From: a virus
Lineage: Duplodnaviria; Caudoviricetes
Virus record (IMG/VR): IMGVR_UViG_3300034025_000048
Span: 1 to 32,426 of that record
Reading direction: 5' to 3' (one strand)
Length of the DNA: 32,426 bases
Position numbers and translations under genes: made by a program. Shown in pieces: positions 4,125 to 32,413 of the stretch. Position 1 is the stretch's first letter, and each line of letters starts with the position of its first letter. The notes under the pieces are model-generated. The model searched no databases. It saw nothing but the letters and a program-made list of their open reading frames with translations, and was not told where the DNA came from.

Positions 4125-5063
4125 ATGGGAATGACCCCAACTGAAGCACGTATCGTCGATCCAATCCTCAGCACTGTCGCCAAGGGCTACCAGAACAATG
4201 AAATGGTCGCTTCCGCGCTGTTTCCAACCGTCCAGGTCCCCTCGCGCGGCGGCAAGATCATCTCGTTCGGCAAGGAAGCATTCATGCTGTACGGCTCGCA
4301 GCGCGCGCCAGGCGAGAACACCAAGCGCATCCGCTTCGGCTACGCCGGCGATCCGTATGCCCTGATCGACTACTCGCTGGAAGGCGTGGTGCCGATCGAG
4401 GTCGACCAGGAGGCCGCAAACGGTCCTGGCATCGATCTCGGCGCCGGCGCCGTGGGCGACGTCAGCGCGATCATGGTTCTGCGCCTGGAAAAGCAGTCCG
4501 CCGATATCGCACGCAACGCAGGCAGCTACGGCGTCAACAACAAGATCACCCTCTCGGGCACTGACCAGTGGTCCGACCCGGCCAGCGATCCGATCGATGA
4601 CGTCGAAGCAGCCAAGGAAGCAGTACGTGCCTCCACCGGCAAGCGCCCGAACACGATGGTCCTCGGCGCGCTGGTATTTGCCAAGCTCAAGAACCACCCG
4701 AAAATCATCGAGCGGATCAAGTACACCGGCCGCGATGTTGCAACGGTGGAACTGCTCGCTTCGCTGTTCGGCCTGCAGCGCGTCGTTGTCGGCGACGCCA
4801 TCTTTTCGAACGACGACGGAACCGCGTTCACCGATGTATGGGGCCGCGATGTCGTGATCGCGTACACCAACCTGGCGCCAGTCCAGTCCGGTGGCCTGCC
4901 GAGCTACGGCTACACCTACCAGCTCAACGGCTACCCGCTGGTGGAAGAGTCGTATTACGACCGCAGCGCGAAGTCGTGGATCTACCCGGTAACGCGTGCC
5001 GAGGCGCCGGTCATGGCTTCGTCGTCGGCCGGCTTCCTGATCCAGAACGCGGTATCTCTGTAA
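4125..5063 (+). CDS. Major capsid protein
   Basis: 312 aa, AGGAG RBS, motifs 'VDPILSTVAKGY', 'WSDPASDPIDD', 'RPNTMVLG' and 'AGFLIQNAV'. Confidence 0.9.
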   Translation: MGMTPTEARIVDPILSTVAKGYQNNEMVASALFPTVQVPSRGGKIISFGKEAFMLYGSQRAPGENTKRIRFGYAGDPYALIDYSLEGVVPIEVDQEAANGPGIDLGAGAVGDVSAIMVLRLEKQSADIARNAGSYGVNNKITLSGTDQWSDPASDPIDDVEAAKEAVRASTGKRPNTMVLGALVFAKLKNHPKIIERIKYTGRDVATVELLASLFGLQRVVVGDAIFSNDDGTAFTDVWGRDVVIAYTNLAPVQSGGLPSYGYTYQLNGYPLVEESYYDRSAKSWIYPVTRAEAPVMASSSAGFLIQNAVSL

Positions 5064-5530
5064 TGGAGATCAAGCTCACCCAGCCAACGCGGCATAACGG
5101 CAAGCGTTACCAGGTAGGCGAAACGCTGACGGTTTCCAGCCGTGCGGCGGCCGGCCTGGTCGCCGCCGGTGCCGGCGTGCCGTTCGTTGATGAACGGGAC
5201 CTCGATGCCGAGGCTGCAGCGGCCGCCCAGGCGCAAGCCGAAGCGGAAGCAGCAGCCCAGGCCCAGGCCGAAGCGGAAGCAGCTGCAGCAGCCCAGGCCG
5301 AGGCCGAAGCGGAAGCAGCTGCAGCAGCCCAGGCCGAGGCCGAAGCGGAAGCAGCTGCAGCAGCCCAGGCCCAGGCCGAAGCGGAAGCAGCTGCAGCAGC
5401 CCAGGCGCAAGCCGAAGCGGAAGCAGCCGCAGCAGCCCAGGCGCAAGCCGAAGCGGAAGCAGCCGCAGCAGCCCAGGCGCAAGCCGACGCCGACGCAGCA
5501 GCTGCTGCGAAGTCGAAAAAGAAATCCTAA
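5063..5530 (+). CDS. Small post-capsid protein with a long Ala/Glu/Gln tandem-repeat tail
   Basis: TAATG coupling to the capsid stop. N-terminal 'HNGKRYQVGETL' domain followed by 12-aa repeats. Confidence 0.75.
   Translation: MEIKLTQPTRHNGKRYQVGETLTVSSRAAAGLVAAGAGVPFVDERDLDAEAAAAAQAQAEAEAAAQAQAEAEAAAAAQAEAEAEAAAAAQAEAEAEAAAAAQAQAEAEAAAAAQAQAEAEAAAAAQAQAEAEAAAAAQAQADADAAAAAKSKKKS
5207..5509 (+). repeat. Coding tandem repeat, 36-nt unit, about 8 copies (one shortened to 30 nt)
   Basis: Unit GCCGAAGCGGAAGCAGCTGCAGCAGCCCAGGC(C/G)(C/G)A(G/A), encoding AEAEAAAAAQA(Q/E). Confidence 0.95.
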
Positions 5531-13345: not shown

Positions 13346-15550
13346 ATGAATTTCGCCGACTTAGTAGAAGAAACAACCACAGTCACCTCCACCGCTGCGA
13401 TCGCCCTGCTGGGGGCGTCCGCCGGATACCGCACGTTCGCTCTTGAGTACGCGCTGAACACGGCCGATATTCCCGTTTGCGTGAAAGACGCTGCCGGCAA
13501 TTACGAGATCGGGCTGTATACGCTCTCCGCTGCGCAGGTACTGACTCGCAACGCGATCACCAAGAGTTCGAATGCGAACAATGCCGTCGCCTTTGGTGCG
13601 GGCACGAAGACGGTCGGCGTAGTCCTGTCGGCAGGGCAGATCGGGAAGCTCCACGCCACTGACGCAACGGAGGTAACGACAATCGCCGATGCGGCCGCAG
13701 CCTACCTGGCCGTGACGATTGGCGGGGTCGCCCGCAAGATCTCGGCGGCCAACTTCCTGACCACACTAGGACAGACGATCGCCCAGCTCGACCCGGCCGG
13801 CGCGATCGTGGGCACGGATCGATTGCCGATCAGCCAGTCAGGCGTGGAAAAGTACGGGACCATGACGGCGATCGCGGCCGCCGTCGCATCGCTGTTGGGT
13901 TTGACGGACAACACGGCGCCCAACGTCAGCTCGGCGGTGGTGTCGAACGCGGCCCCCACGGTGGTTGTGTTGCAGATGTCGGAAACGCTAAACGCCGGTT
14001 TCATTCCGGCCGCCAGCGCGTTCACCGTGAGTGGCCATACTGTGTCGAGCGTTGCCATCGCCGGCTCCACCATCAGCCTGACCTGCTCGGCTGCCTTCAT
14101 CTACGGGGAGACGCCGCGTACCGTGGCGTACACCCAGCCAGGCACGAACAACGCTCGCGACAGCGCTGGCAATCTGCTCGCCAACTTCGCAGGGACTGCG
14201 ATTACCAACAACGTGGCCAGCGCCGATGTGACCGCACCAACGTTCGTCAGCGCCGCCATTGCGAACGCATCGCCAACGGTGATCGATATCACCATGAGCG
14301 AGGCCCTGGCGGCGAGTGTGCCCGCGTCGACGGCATTCGCGGCGAGCGGCAAGACGATCACGGGAGTGTCGGTCGCAGGGTCGGTGATTTCCGTTACCGT
14401 AAGCGTGGCCTATGCTTTTGGCGATACGCCGACGATCACCTACACGCAGCCTGGCGCGAACCGAATCCAGGATGCAGCTGGTAATCCATCGGCGAGTTTC
14501 GGGCCGTCGACGGTGACCAACAACATCGGCGCGACCGACACTGTGCCCCCGAGCTTTGTTAGCGCCCAGGTGGCGAACGCTGCGCCGACTCAGATCGTGA
14601 TCACGATGAGCGAGACGCTCGGCGCCTTCACGCCGGCCGCAGCGGCGTTCACGCTGTCCGGCGGCAAGACCTGCACCAACGTCGCCCGATCGGGCGCCAC
14701 CTTGACCCTGACCGCGTCGGCCGCCTACGCGTATGGCGACGTGATCACGGCCTCCTACGTCAAGCCTGGCACCAACCAACTCCGCGACGTTGCGAACAAT
14801 GAAACAGCATCGTTCGGCCCGGTCGCAGTCACCAACAATATCGCGAGCACCGCCCCTGCTGCAGCAGTGACGTCGCTCGCTGCTGGTGCGAAAGCCGATA
14901 CCACGATCGAGCTGACGTGGGTAAATGCAACTGGCGGCACGGGATGGACGGTCAAGCAGCGCACGACCGCCGGCGGCGGCGCCTATACAACGTCGACCTT
15001 GTCGGTCGCAGCAACGGCGACCGGTTGCACCGTTTCGGGCCTTGCGGCGAATACGGCATACGATTTCGAGGTTACCGTCTTCAACGGCGGGGGCAACGGT
15101 CCAGCTGCTACGCTCGGCAATATCTCGACCACTGCAGCATTGGTCGCATGGACCAACTCCGCGTACAGCGGGACGTCCTTCAAAGCGACGGCCGATGGTA
15201 CAACCGCGTCGTCCGTCCAGGGCACCCTCAAGGGATATCTCGCAGCGAAGTGGCTGAACGGCGGGACCTATTGGGCAACGACGCCAAAGCCTGCTACGTG
15301 TAAAGGCGGTTGGGGTACGTCGGCAACAGTCCCCCCGGCTGAGATTACGATCGGTCAAAACCAAGCCGGCAGTGCTCCGGTCAACGGCATGCAGCCGCTC
15401 GGCGCCGCGACGGGCAATAACTGGAATATCGAACTGTACTGCTGGCTCACCGGCGGCTCGGGCTCCACCACGATGTACTACTGGATGAAGCCGGTTGATG
15501 GGGCTGCGCAATGCCTCACCCCGAGCGGTGTCATCTTCACCAACGTGTAA
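13346..15550 (+). CDS. Virion adhesin/fibre-like protein with three Ig-like (SwmB-type) repeats and an FN3-like domain
   Basis: Repeats start at 13907, 14225 and 14537 (DxTAP...MSExL...YTQPG...DxAGN...F...VTNN). FN3-like 'LTW...VSGLAANTAYDFEV'. Confidence 0.75.
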   Translation: MNFADLVEETTTVTSTAAIALLGASAGYRTFALEYALNTADIPVCVKDAAGNYEIGLYTLSAAQVLTRNAITKSSNANNAVAFGAGTKTVGVVLSAGQIGKLHATDATEVTTIADAAAAYLAVTIGGVARKISAANFLTTLGQTIAQLDPAGAIVGTDRLPISQSGVEKYGTMTAIAAAVASLLGLTDNTAPNVSSAVVSNAAPTVVVLQMSETLNAGFIPAASAFTVSGHTVSSVAIAGSTISLTCSAAFIYGETPRTVAYTQPGTNNARDSAGNLLANFAGTAITNNVASADVTAPTFVSAAIANASPTVIDITMSEALAASVPASTAFAASGKTITGVSVAGSVISVTVSVAYAFGDTPTITYTQPGANRIQDAAGNPSASFGPSTVTNNIGATDTVPPSFVSAQVANAAPTQIVITMSETLGAFTPAAAAFTLSGGKTCTNVARSGATLTLTASAAYAYGDVITASYVKPGTNQLRDVANNETASFGPVAVTNNIASTAPAAAVTSLAAGAKADTTIELTWVNATGGTGWTVKQRTTAGGGAYTTSTLSVAATATGCTVSGLAANTAYDFEVTVFNGGGNGPAATLGNISTTAALVAWTNSAYSGTSFKATADGTTASSVQGTLKGYLAAKWLNGGTYWATTPKPATCKGGWGTSATVPPAEITIGQNQAGSAPVNGMQPLGAATGNNWNIELYCWLTGGSGSTTMYYWMKPVDGAAQCLTPSGVIFTNV

Positions 15551-15558
15551 GGGCGCGC

Positions 15559-17082
15559 ATGAAAATTCGAATTACTTCGACGCCCCGGCTGCGGCTGCGC
15601 GCCGGTAAGGTTGGCCTGGTGGGCGAGTTCGGTGGAACGGCTGCTGACAGCGTCACCTTGATCGATTTCGCCCTGGACTATCAGGGCTTTCAGCATGTGA
15701 GCGGAAGCAAGAATATCCCTGTTTCAGTGAACTACACCGGATCGCCCAGCCTGATCGAGGTGCGTGCTGTCAACGACGAGACCGGGATCGCGGTCACGCC
15801 CTGGACCACACTCGCGGCCAACCCTTCGGGCGGCCTGGCAAGTGGGTTCCTCAACGTCGCTGCGGCGTTGCGGTTCTGCCGCCTCGAGGCGCGCTGCGGA
15901 GTCAACACCGCGCTCGTTTCAAGCGGCACGAAGCGCTTCGGCGTCGGGATCTTTGTTATCCAGTGGGGCCAGTCGAACATGGCCAACAGGACCTCTGCCA
16001 ACGGCCCTCGATATCCGCTGTCTAGCAAGTACGTCCGCGAGTTCTCTACTGCCGGCGTATTCCGCAGGTTCGGCAACATTAACGACACCTACCCTCCGAA
16101 CACGCTGTACGGAACGTACTCGTCATACACGGGTTCCGGTGGCTCTGTTGGTGATGGCGACGTCATGTTCGCTAACCTCTTAGCTGCCGCGCTGCAGATG
16201 CCCGTGTTCCTGATCAACCGTGCGGTCGGCGGCTCGGAGATATCGTCGTGGATCGAGGATAACAATGCCGGCGTCGACAACAACTGGGACAAGCTTCGCA
16301 AAGCAATCATTGCCGCGACCGGCGGGGACTTCGAACTGGCGATCGGCCAGATCGGCGAGACAGACGCAAATTCGAAGACGCAGGCTTACATGGAGACGAA
16401 CTTTGCAGCAGTCCACGCCAACATGAAAACCCTTTCCGGTCGCAACAACAGCAACTTCAAGTTCGGCTTGTGCTCGCTCGGCCAGGGCAGCTACCTGACT
16501 TCGGTCGAGGGCGACTTCGGAAGGATGCGCCTGGCCGTCCAAGCTTATTGCAACAATACCGGCGCGTACCTGGCGACGAGCTATCACGACACGCTTACCT
16601 CGGACACCGTCCACATCCTTGGCGAGGGCTTCGGGCGCGGCCAGCCACGGGAGGCCAAGTCCTTCCTGGCCACGCAGGGCATCGGCACGTCGGGCGCCGG
16701 GCCGCGTATCGTCAGTGCGCTTCGGTCCGGGCTTGATGTGGTATTCACCGTCGTACACGCCGGCGGCACCAATTTGACCGATGGCGCCGGCGGCACCGGG
16801 GCGGCCCTTACGGGGTTCCAGTTCTATGACGAGGGTGCTGCCAGGGCGGCGATCGCTTACACGGCTACGGCGATCCTCAGTCCTACGAGCATTCGCGTCA
16901 CCTTGGCATCGCTGCCGGCCGGAGTATTGAAGGCCCGCTATGGAATCATGAATGTGCCCCACGGGACCAACAACAACCCGCAAACCTTCGTGGCGGCGTC
17001 GTGCGTCTACGACAATGCTTTGCCGTTCAACAGCACAGTCGGCTGCCCGATGCAGGTGTGCGCTGAACTCACCGTGAACTGA
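15559..17082 (+). CDS. SGNH/SASA-family carbohydrate O-acetylesterase, probably virion-associated
   Basis: GQSNM nucleophile motif, AVGGS, a QGExD-like 'QIGETD' and DTVH (DxxH). Confidence 0.8.
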   Translation: MKIRITSTPRLRLRAGKVGLVGEFGGTAADSVTLIDFALDYQGFQHVSGSKNIPVSVNYTGSPSLIEVRAVNDETGIAVTPWTTLAANPSGGLASGFLNVAAALRFCRLEARCGVNTALVSSGTKRFGVGIFVIQWGQSNMANRTSANGPRYPLSSKYVREFSTAGVFRRFGNINDTYPPNTLYGTYSSYTGSGGSVGDGDVMFANLLAAALQMPVFLINRAVGGSEISSWIEDNNAGVDNNWDKLRKAIIAATGGDFELAIGQIGETDANSKTQAYMETNFAAVHANMKTLSGRNNSNFKFGLCSLGQGSYLTSVEGDFGRMRLAVQAYCNNTGAYLATSYHDTLTSDTVHILGEGFGRGQPREAKSFLATQGIGTSGAGPRIVSALRSGLDVVFTVVHAGGTNLTDGAGGTGAALTGFQFYDEGAARAAIAYTATAILSPTSIRVTLASLPAGVLKARYGIMNVPHGTNNNPQTFVAASCVYDNALPFNSTVGCPMQVCAELTVN

Positions 17083-24996: not shown

Positions 24997-25785
24997 ATGG
25001 CAATGCCTATCATTCCGTGGATCGGCGGCAAGCGCCGCCTGTTTGACCACCTGGTCCCACAATTCCCTTCCCACGACTGTTATGTCGAGGTGTTCGCCGG
25101 CGGCGCTGCGCTGTATTTCATGCGGCCGCCAGCAAAGGTCGAGGTCATCAACGACATCAACGGCGAGCTGGTGCGGCTGTATCGAGTCGTCCAGAATCAT
25201 CTGGAAGAGTTCGTGCGGCATTTCAAGTTCGCGCTGGCCAGCCGCGAGGTGTTCGCCTGGCACCAGGAAACGCCGCCCGACACGCTGACCGACATCCAGC
25301 GCGCCGTGCGTTTCTTTTACCTGCAGCAGCACGCGTTCGGCGGCAAGGTGAATAGCCAGACCTGGGGCACCGCGACGACGACGCCACCAATCAACCTGCT
25401 CCGCATCGAGGAGAACCTGTCTGCGGCCCACTTGCGGCTCGCTGGCGCCTTCATCGAGCACATGGACTGGTACAAGCTCATGGAGCGCTACGATCGGCCC
25501 CATACGCTGTTCTATCTGGACCCGCCGTATCTAGAAACCGAAGGATATGGGGTCGACTTCTCCAAGGATGAGTACGTAAAGATGGCGGAATTGATGGGCC
25601 GGCTCAAGGGCAAGGCGATCCTGAGCCTGAACGACCATCCCGAGATCCGGCGCATCTTCGGTGCGTTCCAAATGGACACTGTGCCGATCACGTATACCGT
25701 AGGCGGCGGAGGAAAGGCGGTCGACCGTGGTGAGCTGATTATCTATAGCTGGGACCGAGCTGCAGAGCCGGCCGGCCTGTTCTAG
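24997..25785 (+). CDS. D12-class (Dam-like) N6-adenine DNA methyltransferase, orphan
   Basis: Motifs 'PWIGGKRR', 'YVEVFAGG', 'EVINDIN' and catalytic 'YLDPPY'. Confidence 0.95.
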   Translation: MAMPIIPWIGGKRRLFDHLVPQFPSHDCYVEVFAGGAALYFMRPPAKVEVINDINGELVRLYRVVQNHLEEFVRHFKFALASREVFAWHQETPPDTLTDIQRAVRFFYLQQHAFGGKVNSQTWGTATTTPPINLLRIEENLSAAHLRLAGAFIEHMDWYKLMERYDRPHTLFYLDPPYLETEGYGVDFSKDEYVKMAELMGRLKGKAILSLNDHPEIRRIFGAFQMDTVPITYTVGGGGKAVDRGELIIYSWDRAAEPAGLF

Positions 25786-25827
25786 CCGTGAATTCCACGG
25801 CGTAACTTTTGGCGTAACTAGCCGGGA

Positions 25828-25926
25828 TTAGCGAGCACTCTTCATAGGGGGAACACCTTCATGCATCATGGGGGTGTGCTTGCTTTTAGGTCCGTTTGCA
25901 AGTGCTTGATTTAACGCAGTATTCAT
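25828..25926 (-). CDS. 32-aa mini-ORF, putative phage-supplied replacement N-terminus for host MutS
   Basis: MNTALNQALANGPKSKHTPMM|HEGVPPMKSAR*. MutS begins with HTPMMQQY and the similarity stops at ATGATGCA. Confidence 0.7.
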   Translation of the reverse strand: MNTALNQALANGPKSKHTPMMHEGVPPMKSAR

Positions 25927-25942
25927 TCGTAAGCTTTTGATT
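25899..25942 (-). promoter_or_regulatory. Two IHF binding sites
   Basis: AATCAAGCACTTG (25911-25899) and AATCAAAAGCTTA (25942-25930) both match WATCAANNNNTTR exactly. Confidence 0.75.
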
Positions 25943-25980: not shown

Positions 25981-26020
25981 GATCACGACACATCACAACA
26001 CATCACAACACTTCACAGTT
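25981..26020. repeat. 10-bp tandem repeats, candidate excisionase (AlpA/RDF) sites
   Basis: GATCACGACA CATCACAACA CATCACAACA CTTCACAGTT. Confidence 0.65.
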
Positions 26021-26063
26021 TAGCGTAGCTTTTTTTGCTTAAAAAATAAAGCTACGCTAAACT
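26017..26063. promoter_or_regulatory. 16-bp perfect inverted repeat containing arm-like sites and the likely int promoter
   Basis: AGTTTAGCGTAGCTTT-N15-AAAGCTACGCTAAACT. TTGCTT(26035)-N17-TAAACT(26058) on the + strand. Confidence 0.65.
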
Positions 26064-26125
26064 CGCCCCTGTTTTTCTGAACCTTAGAAAAAACCTACGC
26101 CGGACTTACGCCGGAAGGGGCAACC

Positions 26126-27418
26126 ATGCAATTCGATGCGCGAGAAGCGAAGCTACTCACGGCAGGCCAACACTTTACCATTTCCGACTGCCCAGGGCTG
26201 CGCCTGCAGGCTACGGCCACTCGTCGCAGCTGGATCTATCGCTATAAGAGCCTGGTCGATGGTCGCATGCGTCAGGTCAAGCTTGGCGACTGGCCAGCAA
26301 TGTCGCCGGCCGTGGCAAACGTTGAATGGGAGAAGGCCCGGCAGCAGCGCGACGCCGGCGTCGACCTGTCAATGGTGAGCAAGGCAGCAAAGGCAGTCGA
26401 GCGCAACGCGCGCGAACTGGAGCGCGAAAAGCAGCGCAAGGGAGTGCTGACCGTAGCCAGGCTGTGCGATGAGTATCTGGTCGGCCGCGTCGAGGCTAGC
26501 CGGGCCGAGAAGGGCGCCGCCGAGGTGCGCCGCATGTTCGCCACCATGCTCGGCCCGCTCGGCGAGGTCGAGGCCGCGACGCTCACCAGGTCGCAGGCGT
26601 TCGACCTTATATCCAGCTTCCTCCACATTCCAGTGCAGGCGATGAAGCTGCGGGCGGAAATGGGTGCGGCCTGGGACTACGGACTCGACGCCGGCCGGCT
26701 GCCTGAGTCGGCTGCGAACTGGTGGCGATTGATCCTGCGTGGCCAGATCAAGAGCAAGGGGCGGTACATCCAGGGCAAGCTGGCTGGCACGAAAAAGCGG
26801 GTGCTCAGCGAGGCTGAGCTGGCGATGCTGATCCCATGGCTGCCGAACTTCTCGCGCCTGGTCGAAGAGGTCTGCACGCTGTATCTATGGACGTGTTTGC
26901 GGGGCGCCGAGATCCTGCAGATGGAAAAGCATGAGCTAACTGATGAGGTCGACGGCTTGTGGTGGACGGTGCCGAAGGAGAAAACAAAAAACCACTGGAG
27001 GGAAAATTCGGGGGATTTGCGCGTGCCGTTGATAGGGCGTGCGGAGGTTATTGTGAGGCGGAGGATGCTTGCTGCGGAAGGGTCGTTTCTGTTTCCGTCA
27101 AACGGCAAGACGGGCTACGTCCAGCAGAAGACGATCGGCTGCGCGATATGGGTTCATATGCCCTACAGTCAAACGCGGCCGGAGTCGTCGCGCGCTCGCC
27201 TGCCCGTCACGCATTGGGCGCCGCATGACTTGCGGCGATCGGGCCGCACGCTGCTGGCCGCCCTCGGGTGCCCCGACGAGGTAGCCGAGGCGGTGATCGG
27301 CCACATGCCATCCGGGATTCGGGGCGTCTACAACCGCCACTCGTACGACAAGGAACGCCGACACTGGTTGACCAGGTTGAGTGATCACCTGGAGCAGCTG
27401 GTCGCCGGCGCCGGTTAG
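26126..27418 (+). CDS. int: Tyrosine integrase with N-terminal arm-binding domain
   Basis: Arm domain 'PGLRL...SWIYRY...QVKLGDWP'. Catalytic residues in CLRGAE, HDLRR, IGH and GVYNRH. Confidence 0.97.
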   Translation: MQFDAREAKLLTAGQHFTISDCPGLRLQATATRRSWIYRYKSLVDGRMRQVKLGDWPAMSPAVANVEWEKARQQRDAGVDLSMVSKAAKAVERNARELEREKQRKGVLTVARLCDEYLVGRVEASRAEKGAAEVRRMFATMLGPLGEVEAATLTRSQAFDLISSFLHIPVQAMKLRAEMGAAWDYGLDAGRLPESAANWWRLILRGQIKSKGRYIQGKLAGTKKRVLSEAELAMLIPWLPNFSRLVEEVCTLYLWTCLRGAEILQMEKHELTDEVDGLWWTVPKEKTKNHWRENSGDLRVPLIGRAEVIVRRRMLAAEGSFLFPSNGKTGYVQQKTIGCAIWVHMPYSQTRPESSRARLPVTHWAPHDLRRSGRTLLAALGCPDEVAEAVIGHMPSGIRGVYNRHSYDKERRHWLTRLSDHLEQLVAGAG

Positions 27419-27660
27419 TTCGTTACGCATTTTTTCTTCCTCCCGCCAGTGTTCTCCGGAGGCAGGTTGTTCGCTATCGGCCGCTGCTCGGCCCATTCTT
27501 CGACTTCCCGGTACAGCCAGGCCACGCGCCGGTTCGACAGTTCGCGTGGTGCCGGGAACGAGTTCTCGCGCACGAGCCGCTGGATGCTCGGCTCGCTAAG
27601 CGATACTGTTGCCGCCACTGCAGGCAGGTCCAGGTACAGTGGCGGAACAAATGCTTTCAT
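27415..27660 (-). CDS. AlpA-family regulator/excisionase
   Basis: 'LDLPAVAATVSLSEPSIQRLV..NSFPAPRELSNRRVAW...EVEEW', convergent with int. Confidence 0.9.
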   Translation of the reverse strand: MKAFVPPLYLDLPAVAATVSLSEPSIQRLVRENSFPAPRELSNRRVAWLYREVEEWAEQRPIANNLPPENTGGRKKKCVTN

Positions 27661-29522: not shown

Positions 29523-30260
29523 TCAGGCGAACTCCGCCTGTGCATTGACGCGAATGCTCGGCGGCTCACTGAACTGGTTGAACCCGTCGAGGCTGACGCC
29601 CTGCAGCAGGTACTCGTAGAATGCGGACAGGCCGCCGTTGCGGATCTCGTCCGCCACGGCCGCGTAGAACAGCGGGTCACGCGGCGGTGGAACTTCCAGC
29701 ACGTAGAAGCGCCGGTTGCTCGCTGACAGTGGCATGAGGTCGTCCGAACTGGAAAGGAACACCAGGTTCAGTTCGTTGGCGACCGTTTGCGCCGGCAGGC
29801 CCTTCTGGTTGATCTCCAGGCTAGAGTTGGACACCAACGCTTTCGCCTCGGCGGTGTAGCGCGCCGGCACACGCTCATTCACCACCAGGTAGCGCGCGTT
29901 CAGTGCCCAGCCGTTGAATGTGCTGAATGCCTTGGCGGCGGTCAGCCGGTGCCCTCGCAGTCCGTAGATGGCGGCAATGACCTCCTCAAAGAACAGTGAC
30001 TTGCCGGTTCCCTCTGCGCCGTTGACAACCAGGGCGTGTTGCATCTTCGCGCCTGGATTTTGGAGAGGGTAGGCCAACCACTTCAACAGGTAGCGGTAGG
30101 CGAACTGGTCGAAGTCGCACAGGTGCATAAGCAGCGCGTTGATGTTGACGCAGCTGGTCGGGATGGTGCGCGGAGGTGGCGTGATCACACGGCTAACCGT
30201 GCGGATACAGATCTTCGCCGAGGCGGCGATGCTCTTCATCATGATGTGAACTGGTTTCAA
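29523..30260 (-). CDS. Stand-alone SF3/primase-helicase-like P-loop NTPase (DUF5906-like)
   Basis: 'WLAYPLQNPGAK', Walker A 'GAEGTGKS', 'FNGW' and 'NRRFYV'. AGGAG RBS before TTG at 30260. Confidence 0.8.
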   Translation of the reverse strand: MKPVHIMMKSIAASAKICIRTVSRVITPPPRTIPTSCVNINALLMHLCDFDQFAYRYLLKWLAYPLQNPGAKMQHALVVNGAEGTGKSLFFEEVIAAIYGLRGHRLTAAKAFSTFNGWALNARYLVVNERVPARYTAEAKALVSNSSLEINQKGLPAQTVANELNLVFLSSSDDLMPLSASNRRFYVLEVPPPRDPLFYAAVADEIRNGGLSAFYEYLLQGVSLDGFNQFSEPPSIRVNAQAEFA

Positions 30261-30283
30261 GTGTGGCTCCTGGTGGGTTTCGA

Positions 30284-32413
30284 TTAGGCTGCAACAGCGG
30301 CCGGGGTTGCTTCGGTGGTGGTGGTGACGGGCGTTGCCGGGTCTTCCGAACGAGTCGGCCATGGCCATGCGTCGGCTGGGAGTAAGCGTTTCTTGCCGCC
30401 CTTCTTTTTGGCGACCGGCGTGTCGAGATCCGCCAGGCTTAGGCCGTCTTCGGTCGCCTCTTCCGCTGCTGCGGCCGTTCCTGGTTCCTGCAACATCGGC
30501 ACAGCCTCGTGCGTCGTCTCGATTGCGGCTGGCTCGACAACTCCCGCGCCCTCGGCAGCAGCGCCCGGCAGGACAAAACCGCCCGCAGCGTAGACATAGC
30601 CCGCTGCCTTGGCGGCGCGCTCCAGCTTATCGATCAGATCAAACCGCACCTGGTCGGCAAGGACCGCTTTGCACAGTTCGTTAATGCGATGCGGGGCGAC
30701 CTTGATGAACTTCACCAGGTCGTCGTATTGCATGGTCGACGTGTCGATAACTGCAGGAGAGACTTCCTCGCGAACGACGTCAGGGTCGATGCCTTCGTGA
30801 CGCGCCATGGCCAGGACCGGCTCAAAGGCATATCCGCAATCTTCGCTACGCATGTCCCAATGGTTCACTGTCAAGGTCTCGCCCACTAACAGGTCGACCA
30901 AGAGCAGCTGTATTTCAGGCAGGCCGGCAGTGTCGATATGGGCGCAAATCGCCTCCTCGCCTGTGCTATCGAACGTGTAGACGTCGTTCAGTTCGATGTG
31001 AGGCAGCGGCAAGATTTGAACCGCCATTTTCGTTATCTCGCGCAGCGCCTCAAGCGTGAAACCGGTTGTCGCGCCTTTGGTGCGGAGCCGTTTATAGAGA
31101 GCGATTCGGAATTCGGTTTCCTTGTCAGCCTTCTCCTCGAGGCAGCGTTGAGCCTCTGCTGCGGCAGCGCGCGCCTTTGCATGGACGTCCGGAGTGTCCG
31201 GCGCCTTTCCCATCCTGGTCGCGTGTTGCTCAACCGTTTCGCATGCGCCGGCAGCTTCCAGGGCGGCCTGCAGCGCTGCGCGGTCGTACAGTGCGAAAAC
31301 GGTGCCGTCGCTATCCTTCACGTACTGGGCAACTGGCGGCATCTCTTTGCCGGTCAGGTGCGTTGCGGCCGTGCCGTTGTTCTTTGTGTCGGGAGCGTTG
31401 CGTTGGAAGTACCAGATCGATTGCTCCGCGCGGGCGAGCGGTAAATCTCGGGCGTGCCAGTAGTTCGGCAGCGCTGCGACTTCTTCCTTCGCTTCGATGA
31501 CGGGGATGCCGGTCTTGTTGGCAGCAACAACGATCCTCGCGAAGTGAGCGCCCTTCTTTTCCGCGAAGCAGTCGGGGTCTGTGCAGACGTCTGCACTGGA
31601 AACGTCCTTGAAGATTTCCGGCTGGTTGCCCGTCCTCTTAGGGCATTTGACGCACGACCCGGCGCTGGCTAGCAGCTTCGCGTCACCCAGCGGGAAGATG
31701 GCAGTGGCGAGATCGAGCATGTAGCGCTGCTGCAGGTGCTCGACGGCGCGGCGATAGGAGAGTGGCTCGCCGACTGGGTAGCTGTTCTTTGGGTTGATGA
31801 TCTCGTCCAGCGCTTTCGCCTGCAGTGCCGGCAGCGGAATACGTGCGATCAGCAGCGCCGTCGACGCCGAGATTTTGTCGTCGAGGAATTGCTCGCGAAC
31901 ATCAAGACTGAGGGCGCACAGCTTGAGGCGGCCGTACACGTAGGAACGGCTTTTCTTGATCTCGTCGGCCAGCTGGTCGGCGTTGTATCCGTGCTGCTGC
32001 ATAAGCAGTTCGTAGCCCTCCGCCTCTTCCAGCGGGTGGGGATTTTCCCGCTGCAGGTTTTCCAAGATCCGCAGCTTGGCCGCCTGCAAGTCTGTGAGGT
32101 TGCGGACCATCGCCGGAATAGCTTCAAGCTCCGCGATGGTTGAGGCGCGGAAGCGCCGCTCGCCGGCAACGATCTCGTATTCTTCTGGCTGCTCTGGTGT
32201 CGGGGTGACTGGCCGTATCAGAATTGGCTGCGCCACGCCGTCAGCCTTAATGCTGGCAGCCAGCTCCTGCAGGGCGGCCTGGTTGAAGCGCTTACGATTG
32301 TCCGGAGAGATGCGGATTTGCTTGAGCAGCACCAGGCGGAATTCGCCATCGTTATGGACTGCTGCGGGGCTAACGGCGGACTCGACGGCGGCAGTGATCA
32401 ATTTTTTCTTCAT
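30284..32413 (-). CDS. parB: Long ParB/RepB/Spo0J-family protein
   Basis: 'QPILIRP', 'IVAGERRFRA', 'ENLQRE' and an HTH region, then a Cys cluster and a long C-terminal extension. Confidence 0.92.
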   Translation of the reverse strand: MKKKLITAAVESAVSPAAVHNDGEFRLVLLKQIRISPDNRKRFNQAALQELAASIKADGVAQPILIRPVTPTPEQPEEYEIVAGERRFRASTIAELEAIPAMVRNLTDLQAAKLRILENLQRENPHPLEEAEGYELLMQQHGYNADQLADEIKKSRSYVYGRLKLCALSLDVREQFLDDKISASTALLIARIPLPALQAKALDEIINPKNSYPVGEPLSYRRAVEHLQQRYMLDLATAIFPLGDAKLLASAGSCVKCPKRTGNQPEIFKDVSSADVCTDPDCFAEKKGAHFARIVVAANKTGIPVIEAKEEVAALPNYWHARDLPLARAEQSIWYFQRNAPDTKNNGTAATHLTGKEMPPVAQYVKDSDGTVFALYDRAALQAALEAAGACETVEQHATRMGKAPDTPDVHAKARAAAAEAQRCLEEKADKETEFRIALYKRLRTKGATTGFTLEALREITKMAVQILPLPHIELNDVYTFDSTGEEAICAHIDTAGLPEIQLLLVDLLVGETLTVNHWDMRSEDCGYAFEPVLAMARHEGIDPDVVREEVSPAVIDTSTMQYDDLVKFIKVAPHRINELCKAVLADQVRFDLIDKLERAAKAAGYVYAAGGFVLPGAAAEGAGVVEPAAIETTHEAVPMLQEPGTAAAAEEATEDGLSLADLDTPVAKKKGGKKRLLPADAWPWPTRSEDPATPVTTTTEATPAAVAA
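31581..31596. promoter_or_regulatory. 16-bp palindrome GTGCAGACGTCTGCAC (copy 3 of 3) inside parB
   Basis: 18 bp (31581-31598) are identical to 7417-7434. Confidence 0.6.

Follow-up and report, generated by a model that had tools for sequence, protein, structure and literature searches.

What purpose could a fragment of the mismatch repair gene mutS serve beside the integrase gene of a tailed phage? The question is raised by a short minus-strand open reading frame with HTPMM codons in the virus record IMGVR_UViG_3300034025_000048 (Caudoviricetes), all 32,426 nucleotides of which were analysed and are called the window here. The first-pass annotation had taken the locus for a phage attachment site (attP) that targets mutS and carries a replacement MutS N-terminus. 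A spare mutS start beside the integrase gene makes it likely that the phage inserts into the first mutS codons. The reading that we prefer, with a probability of about 0.92, is that the phage integrase would recombine the attP core with the HTPMMQQ codons of mutS, that the MutS protein of the lysogen would receive a phage-made tail and that excision would restore the native gene.

The mutS motif and the phage that carries it

The frame has the HTPMM codons placed in a dyad, as described earlier (Table 1). It consists of 16 codons, the HTPMM motif, whose His is the next codon, and 11 unrelated codons (HEGVPPMKSAR). The putative replacement start is limited to the first 21 codons; the remaining codons read through into the other arm of the phage and exist in the attP form alone. 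A Pfam search of the 32-aa frame matched no family.

The two dyad arms (25853-25861 and 25869-25877) are complementary at 7 of 9 bases and enclose a spacer (25862-25868); the arm at 25869-25877 also encodes the His-Thr-Pro codons. Identity to MutS codons stops after ATGATGCA: the next codon is CAT (His) in the window and CAG or CAA (Gln) in the mutS bodies of lysogens. When dyad centres were scored for 14 attP forms, the centre at TGATGCA reached 5.1-5.6 of 9 and the next centre 3.7. Spacer lengths of 5, 7 and 9 give similar scores, and the dyad thus sets the crossover centre, not the length by itself; the 7-bp central spacer proposed at first is correct in its position, while its length does not follow from the dyad. 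An overlap of 7 bp, the usual length for lambda-type integrases, is compatible with junction and dyad data. A contig of run X1 (a biocrust metagenome that may be the source sample), which is an independent assembly, has 0 differences across the site.

Table 1. Predicted features of the attachment site and of neighbouring genes, in window coordinates
Feature	Position	Strand	Basis or remark
Frame, 32 codons	25828..25926	-	ATG 25926 to TAA 25828
Putative replacement MutS start (first 21 codons of the frame)	25926-25864	-	Frame open in relatives' arms
Core dyad, two putative 9-bp core-type integrase sites around the overlap	25853-25877	.	Binding predicted from lambda-type att anatomy
Predicted 7-bp strand-exchange (overlap) region TGATGCA, in Met-Met-Gln/His codons	25862..25868	-	Shared by junctions
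IHF consensus site 1, within the replacement start (codons Asn-Gln-Ala-Leu)	25899..25911	-	Exact match
IHF consensus site 2, 3 bases short of the replacement ATG	25930..25942	-	Exact match
10-bp repeat in three tandem copies; candidate sites for an AlpA-type excisionase	25982..26011	+	Putative role
20-bp inverted repeat with two TACGC arm-type motifs	26017..26063	.	Putative role
TAnnnT hexamer, recurring; candidate -10 box of the integrase gene	26058-26063		Putative role
Pair of direct 11-bp repeats; candidate arm-type integrase sites	26093..26114	+	
Pair of direct 9-bp repeats in the short arm; candidate arm-type sites	25799..25819	-	
Tyrosine integrase with arm-binding domain, 430 aa	26126..27418	+	Pfam PF13356, PF00589; tree
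AlpA-family protein, likely excisionase	27415..27660	-	PF05930; PHROG excisionase families
D12-class adenine methyltransferase, last gene before the attP short arm	24997..25785	+	PF02086

The integrase gene is divergent from the replacement start and the AlpA-family gene is next after it. Genes of a temperate tailed phage are readily found in the window (portal, S49 protease, major capsid, tail tube, tape measure, lysozyme, integrase and AlpA). Terminase and repressor are absent from the 32 kb; the contig is partial, beginning just ahead of the head-tail adaptor and stopping at a ParB-like gene, and the virus record consists of the window alone, without host DNA. The capsid protein has no match in the five phages compared (L010, L003, RS-AB1, Aval and KS9), indicating that structural modules vary among mutS-site phages.

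Three further regions of the window were recorded. The tail region at 13346-17082 encodes proteins of 734 aa (repeat and fn3 domains) and 523 aa (SASA-type esterase domain) that are unmatched in the related prophages compared and are likely a host-recognition module. The protein after the capsid gene (4838-5530) has a tandem Ala/Glu/Gln-rich repeat. The early region at 29526-32413 encodes a ParB-like protein of 709 aa and a VapE/primase-like piece of 281 aa, both also present in L010. We also considered whether the adenine methyltransferase has a link to mismatch repair, but discarded the idea: the protein scores below the Dam cut-off, and copies (63-85% identical) are present in only three of the seven mutS-site elements compared.

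Integrase relatives, their targets and their junctions

Integrase relatives were collected in contigs (genome, viral and metagenome), among deposited phages and in genomes around Massilia frigida, where 3 of 36 genus-level and 18 of 401 family-level genomes had a match. After removal of one short weak match (L012) and five duplicate loci, 39 integrase loci were kept, 36 of them with upstream DNA. An xTPMM motif is found 210-253 bp upstream of the integrase in 23 of these 36 loci, and its presence follows integrase identity: 16/16 loci at 56% or more (223-253 bp upstream), 7/10 at 50-56% and 0/10 below 50%. Among the 23 motif loci, a mutS body follows in 16, the attP form seen in the window is present in six, and one locus is truncated; the 23 include repeats, namely two near-identical Ralstonia records and three copies in one genome (G408). 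The closest relatives are L010 (77% identity), a phage record of 38,895 bp in attP form with terminal repeats and terminase, and a prophage of M. frigida (74%), whose replacement start (MNTLSNQEV..) is similar to that of the window (MNTALNQAL..).

In a quick maximum-likelihood tree that left out twelve redundant rows and matches shorter than 300 aa, the window integrase falls into a clade of 19 rows (SH-aLRT 100). The motif is carried by all 17 rows that have flanks (five of these had been selected by motif), and the named members of the clade are Oxalobacteraceae. The host of the phage is thus likely a member of the Oxalobacteraceae of the Massilia/Telluria type. The exact 32-base pattern expected for a junction of this phage has 0 matches in metagenome contigs, and the run X1 contigs have the attP form alone, with neither joints nor loose ends there, although contigs drop rare forms. 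As no lysogen or junction of its own was found, both the host and the integration of this phage are predicted from relatives of at most 77% identity.

The more distant integrases have other targets. Those at 54-55% identity follow the 3' end of ribA (KS9, locus L020, 1-19; L117, 2-160) and one at 51% follows maf (L118, 2401-2853). As these related integrases adjoin the 3' ends of ribA or maf, the wider family appears to have changed targets several times and target choice is not fixed. We assume that KS9 integrates into ribA, the support in this analysis coming from sequence alone; a literature search for the KS9 integration site found no paper. Five integrases at 41-45% identity (L005, L006, L007, L008 and L119) are situated at the start of a 2-hydroxyacid dehydrogenase gene. 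In this sister clade (Polaromonas, Rhodoferax) the integrase gene is divergent at the dehydrogenase start, and the AT-rich arm and TACGC-type repeats are alike; the dehydrogenase start is possibly another target for re-heading.

Could the motif in the window be a relic or a chance match of a phage that integrates elsewhere? Some relatives at 55% identity or less do use other genes; however, these relatives have no motif, and mutS is the target of every one of the 16 relatives that reach 56% and have flanks, in agreement with the earlier expectation that close integrase homologues would not be found at other loci. In the window, the motif is surrounded by a full att anatomy. Its single copy there, together with a distance to the integrase gene (247 bp) that matches the relatives, argues against chance, and such an explanation can be given almost no weight.

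Both junctions were recovered by pattern searches in 10 of 15 genomes. The remaining five comprise two with motifs outside the pattern (G242 and G356; VTPMM/ITPMM), an attP-form contig (G002), one with a single junction (G003) and a chance match (G004). In all 10 lysogens, one junction joins an element-made start to the mutS body. At the other junction the native mutS start is stranded: it ends soon after the core and enters a phage arm that resembles window positions 25861-25799. In Massilia-like hosts the stranded start has about 20 codons of the type M..PSEIN..EK. Where both ends lie on one contig the elements are 36.8-61.6 kb in size, and among those checked four have terminase and portal, one has a tail sheath and one a terminase. 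The junctions of the 10 related lysogens map to the HTPMM codons at both ends, as had been proposed, and agree with an attP that targets these codons and brings a replacement N-terminus.

The two ends of an element always have ATGATGCA in common, sometimes with nothing further on one side: the core is identical at attL and attR in 10/10 lysogens, with the shared run going down to 1 base on the left and 0 on the right. Native frame, core and mutS body are in register in all 10, which predicts excision free of scars. When the window arm was joined in silico to each of the 10 bodies, the frame was open through all 523 codons covered.

The first-pass annotation had pointed to a hypermutator upon excision, as in Vibrio splendidus 12B01, where loss of the prophage frameshifts mutS. 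This has been shown for 12B01 and the target motif is the same (Chu et al. 2017, PMC5296598), but the identical cores, in register at both junctions of 10/10 related lysogens in silico, stand against it, as does the core that stays in frame in the attP-form sequences. Further, the 2-bp excision scar was found in 12B01 only and was called possibly 12B01-specific, and the three other elements tested excised cleanly: those of E. coli 536, P. putida F1 and B. multivorans CF2, the latter two being prophages that excise to a scarless circle (PMC5296598). A scarred excision of the window phage is therefore highly improbable and this part of the annotation is not supported.

Two loci deserve separate mention. 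G408 has a tandem double prophage in mutS (C17, 1447438-1520966), consisting of two 36,756-bp copies with attP between them, as well as a separate contig of about 36.8 kb (C3) that ends at attP, which fits an active element. In L054 (G394:C40:180181), a phage-type short arm comes after a second core that lacks a mutS start ahead of it; this is possibly a secondary site or a remnant.

For the window phage, we propose that the tyrosine integrase would recombine TGATGCA, the 7-bp core, with the identical stretch among the HTPMMQQ codons of mutS in the host. In the resulting lysogen, HTPMM preceded by 16 phage-made codons would be joined in frame to the MutS body, and the native mutS start would be left at the opposite prophage end; after excision the native gene would be restored with no scar. 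The spare start would serve as a repair patch, with which the phage could use a highly conserved target while the host keeps mismatch repair. It would also be written over recombination signals of the phage, with N-Q-x-L/V corresponding to an IHF site and the HTP codons to a core-type site.

Coding and predicted recombination signals in the replacement start

For analysis of the arms, relatives were picked by integrase and not by motif, and near-identical arms were merged at 80% identity, resulting in 19 independent arms. The MutS frame is open for at least 11 codons in all 19 (median 31), compared with 9 and 13 arms for the other two frames (medians 6 and 14), indicating that the replacement-start frame is under constraint of its own. 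An in-frame ATG is present in 17 of the 19 arms (0 and 2 in the other frames), and all 19 have either ATG or GTG. Two fusions, those of Massilia frigida and Telluria, were scanned; both exceed the MutS cut-off along the full length of the model, and the MutS at these two junctions is full-length. In the MutS family models, as in the alignment to E. coli MutS, the first residues covered are those of the HTPMM motif, which leaves the residues ahead of it free to vary; the data fit a free N-terminal tail followed by a needed HTPM.

In the whole 32 kb, the two sites listed in Table 1 are the only exact matches to the IHF consensus (taken from PMC7581858); 0.23 matches are expected and 2 of 100 shuffles reach two. 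Site 1 is found at the same offset with at most one mismatch in 17/19 independent arms and site 2 at offset 63-64 in 14/19, while site 1 is absent from native mutS arms (0/10). The N-Q-x-L/V residues shared by the replacement starts are therefore likely an imprint of the IHF site. A separate pattern scan for an IHF site plus core in viral contigs gave 30 hits, all 30 with a related integrase alongside.

Other predicted signals are similarly placed. The short-arm 9-bp repeats of the window lie 44 and 56 bases past the core, and a corresponding motif is present 42-44 bases past the core at 10/10 attR junctions, with a second copy at 8/10. Together with the three 10-bp repeats, the arm-type repeats would complete a lambda-like attP layout. 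Just beyond the core dyad, the short arm also has a conserved CCTATG-like stretch (window 25840-25850), in which one T is invariant in 24/24 arms.

The overlap between coding and IHF sequence leads to a different view of the upstream frame, as an untranslated by-product of the IHF sites, with lysogens restarting MutS at a core Met or losing MutS. The coincidence of the conserved residues with the IHF motif would agree with this, and so would the start signals, as neither a clear Shine-Dalgarno sequence nor a promoter was seen: inspection of the sequence ahead of the replacement ATG gave no obvious ribosome-binding site, the window has 0 matches to a sigma-70 consensus promoter toward mutS, and a relaxed promoter scan in that direction was not above background (mean best score 7.6, versus 7.8 in shuffles). 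However, the MutS frame alone, unlike the other two, is open with a start codon in 19/19 arms, and a restart at the core would lose His-Thr-Pro-Met, where the family models begin. An untranslated frame is thus very unlikely, and translation from the phage ATG is predicted. The negative scans for a promoter and a ribosome-binding site also count against the preferred reading.

It is also conceivable, in line with the phage control of mismatch repair put forward at first, that the phage arm would alter the amount of MutS in the lysogen, and that lysogeny or induction would shift the mutation rate of the host. Integration necessarily replaces the upstream region of mutS, two IHF consensus sites flank and overlap the new ATG, and Chu et al. 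raised the possibility for scar-free elements (PMC5296598). The arms scanned had no conserved promoter, though, recombination fully accounts for the IHF sites, and no rate change outside 12B01 is shown in the available text of Chu et al. (PMC5296598). We regard such an effect as unlikely. Slightly less likely again is a dual-coded switch, in which IHF, integrase and excisionase on the mutS-start DNA would set the MutS level according to the state of the recombination complex and intact prophages across Betaproteobacteria would tune the mutation rate without scars. The finding of a further site that splits and rebuilds mutS would be of greater importance only if lysogens differed in MutS level or mutation rate; the question dates from 2017 and is easy to test with this family in soil bacteria.

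Comparison with known mutS-site elements and attachment sites

The window phage is a free-phage example with a fully readable attP that joins the elements splitting and rebuilding mutS. It provides a predicted crossover, a likely host group and, by the IHF overlap, a possible explanation for the conserved look of replacement starts. It also reveals a trap in annotation, as the annotated mutS start and upstream region of such lysogens are phage DNA.

The attP of lambda-type phages has a core, a 7-bp overlap, arm sites, IHF sites and Xis sites. The site in the window likewise combines a core dyad with two IHF consensus sites, tandem 10-bp repeats and arm-type repeats paired on each side; it is different in that its long arm also encodes the start of a host protein, the roles of the individual sites being predicted from sequence.

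The mutS-site design has been known since 2017, prophages included, and the window phage adds another example: Chu et al. (mBio, PMC5296598) describe hundreds of elements in the mutS HTPMMQQ motif, some of them prophages, so that a virion-type phage at this site is not new, contrary to what had been suggested at first. Shared features are the HTPMMQQ target (predicted for the window phage), an integrase within about 300 bp of the motif and an element-made in-frame start (predicted to be translated in the window). For a promoter supplied by the element, the scans of the window gave no candidate above background. The orphaned host start of their elements is matched in the 10 related lysogens; the window, being an attP form, has no such junction. 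Host genera of their Table S2, which lists a 41,944-bp element of Massilia alkalitolerans, overlap those of the relatives found here (Massilia, Ralstonia, Acidovorax). The window is the free attP form of another phage, and no 2-bp scar is predicted for it, unlike for the V. splendidus 12B01 element. A word search of the main text of Chu et al. (PMC5296598) returned no IHF, arm sites, virions or plaques.

Literature searches, which covered few subscription papers, identified no later study of mutS HTPMMQQ elements, and a search for IHF consensus, attP and integrase returned no mutS paper as judged by title and start of abstract. Within this scope, which makes for a weak negative, a replacement start written over IHF sites was not found in print. 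In a Ralstonia preprint (10.1101/2024.10.16.618685) mutS appears only as a typing gene.

Aval, a temperate myovirus of Acidovorax (OP131589; PMC11619371), has been isolated, forms plaques and was imaged by electron microscopy. The same attP design (...HTPMMH) opens its record, and its integrase is 53% identical; it differs in host and as a myovirus, and the available part of its paper (PMC11619371) mentions neither mutS nor attP. The 44-kb prophage AB1 of Burkholderia gladioli has an integrase and AlpA, and its site is reported as adjacent to mutS (PMC13366799); the likeness is to the published description alone, the available part of which includes no replacement start. SpyCI of Streptococcus pyogenes is likewise a phage-like element in a mismatch-repair locus (PMC3430984, PMC4129442). 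It interrupts mutL and is a shown growth-dependent mutator switch (PMC3430984, PMC4129442, PMC13492144), whereas the window phage would rebuild the gene that it enters.
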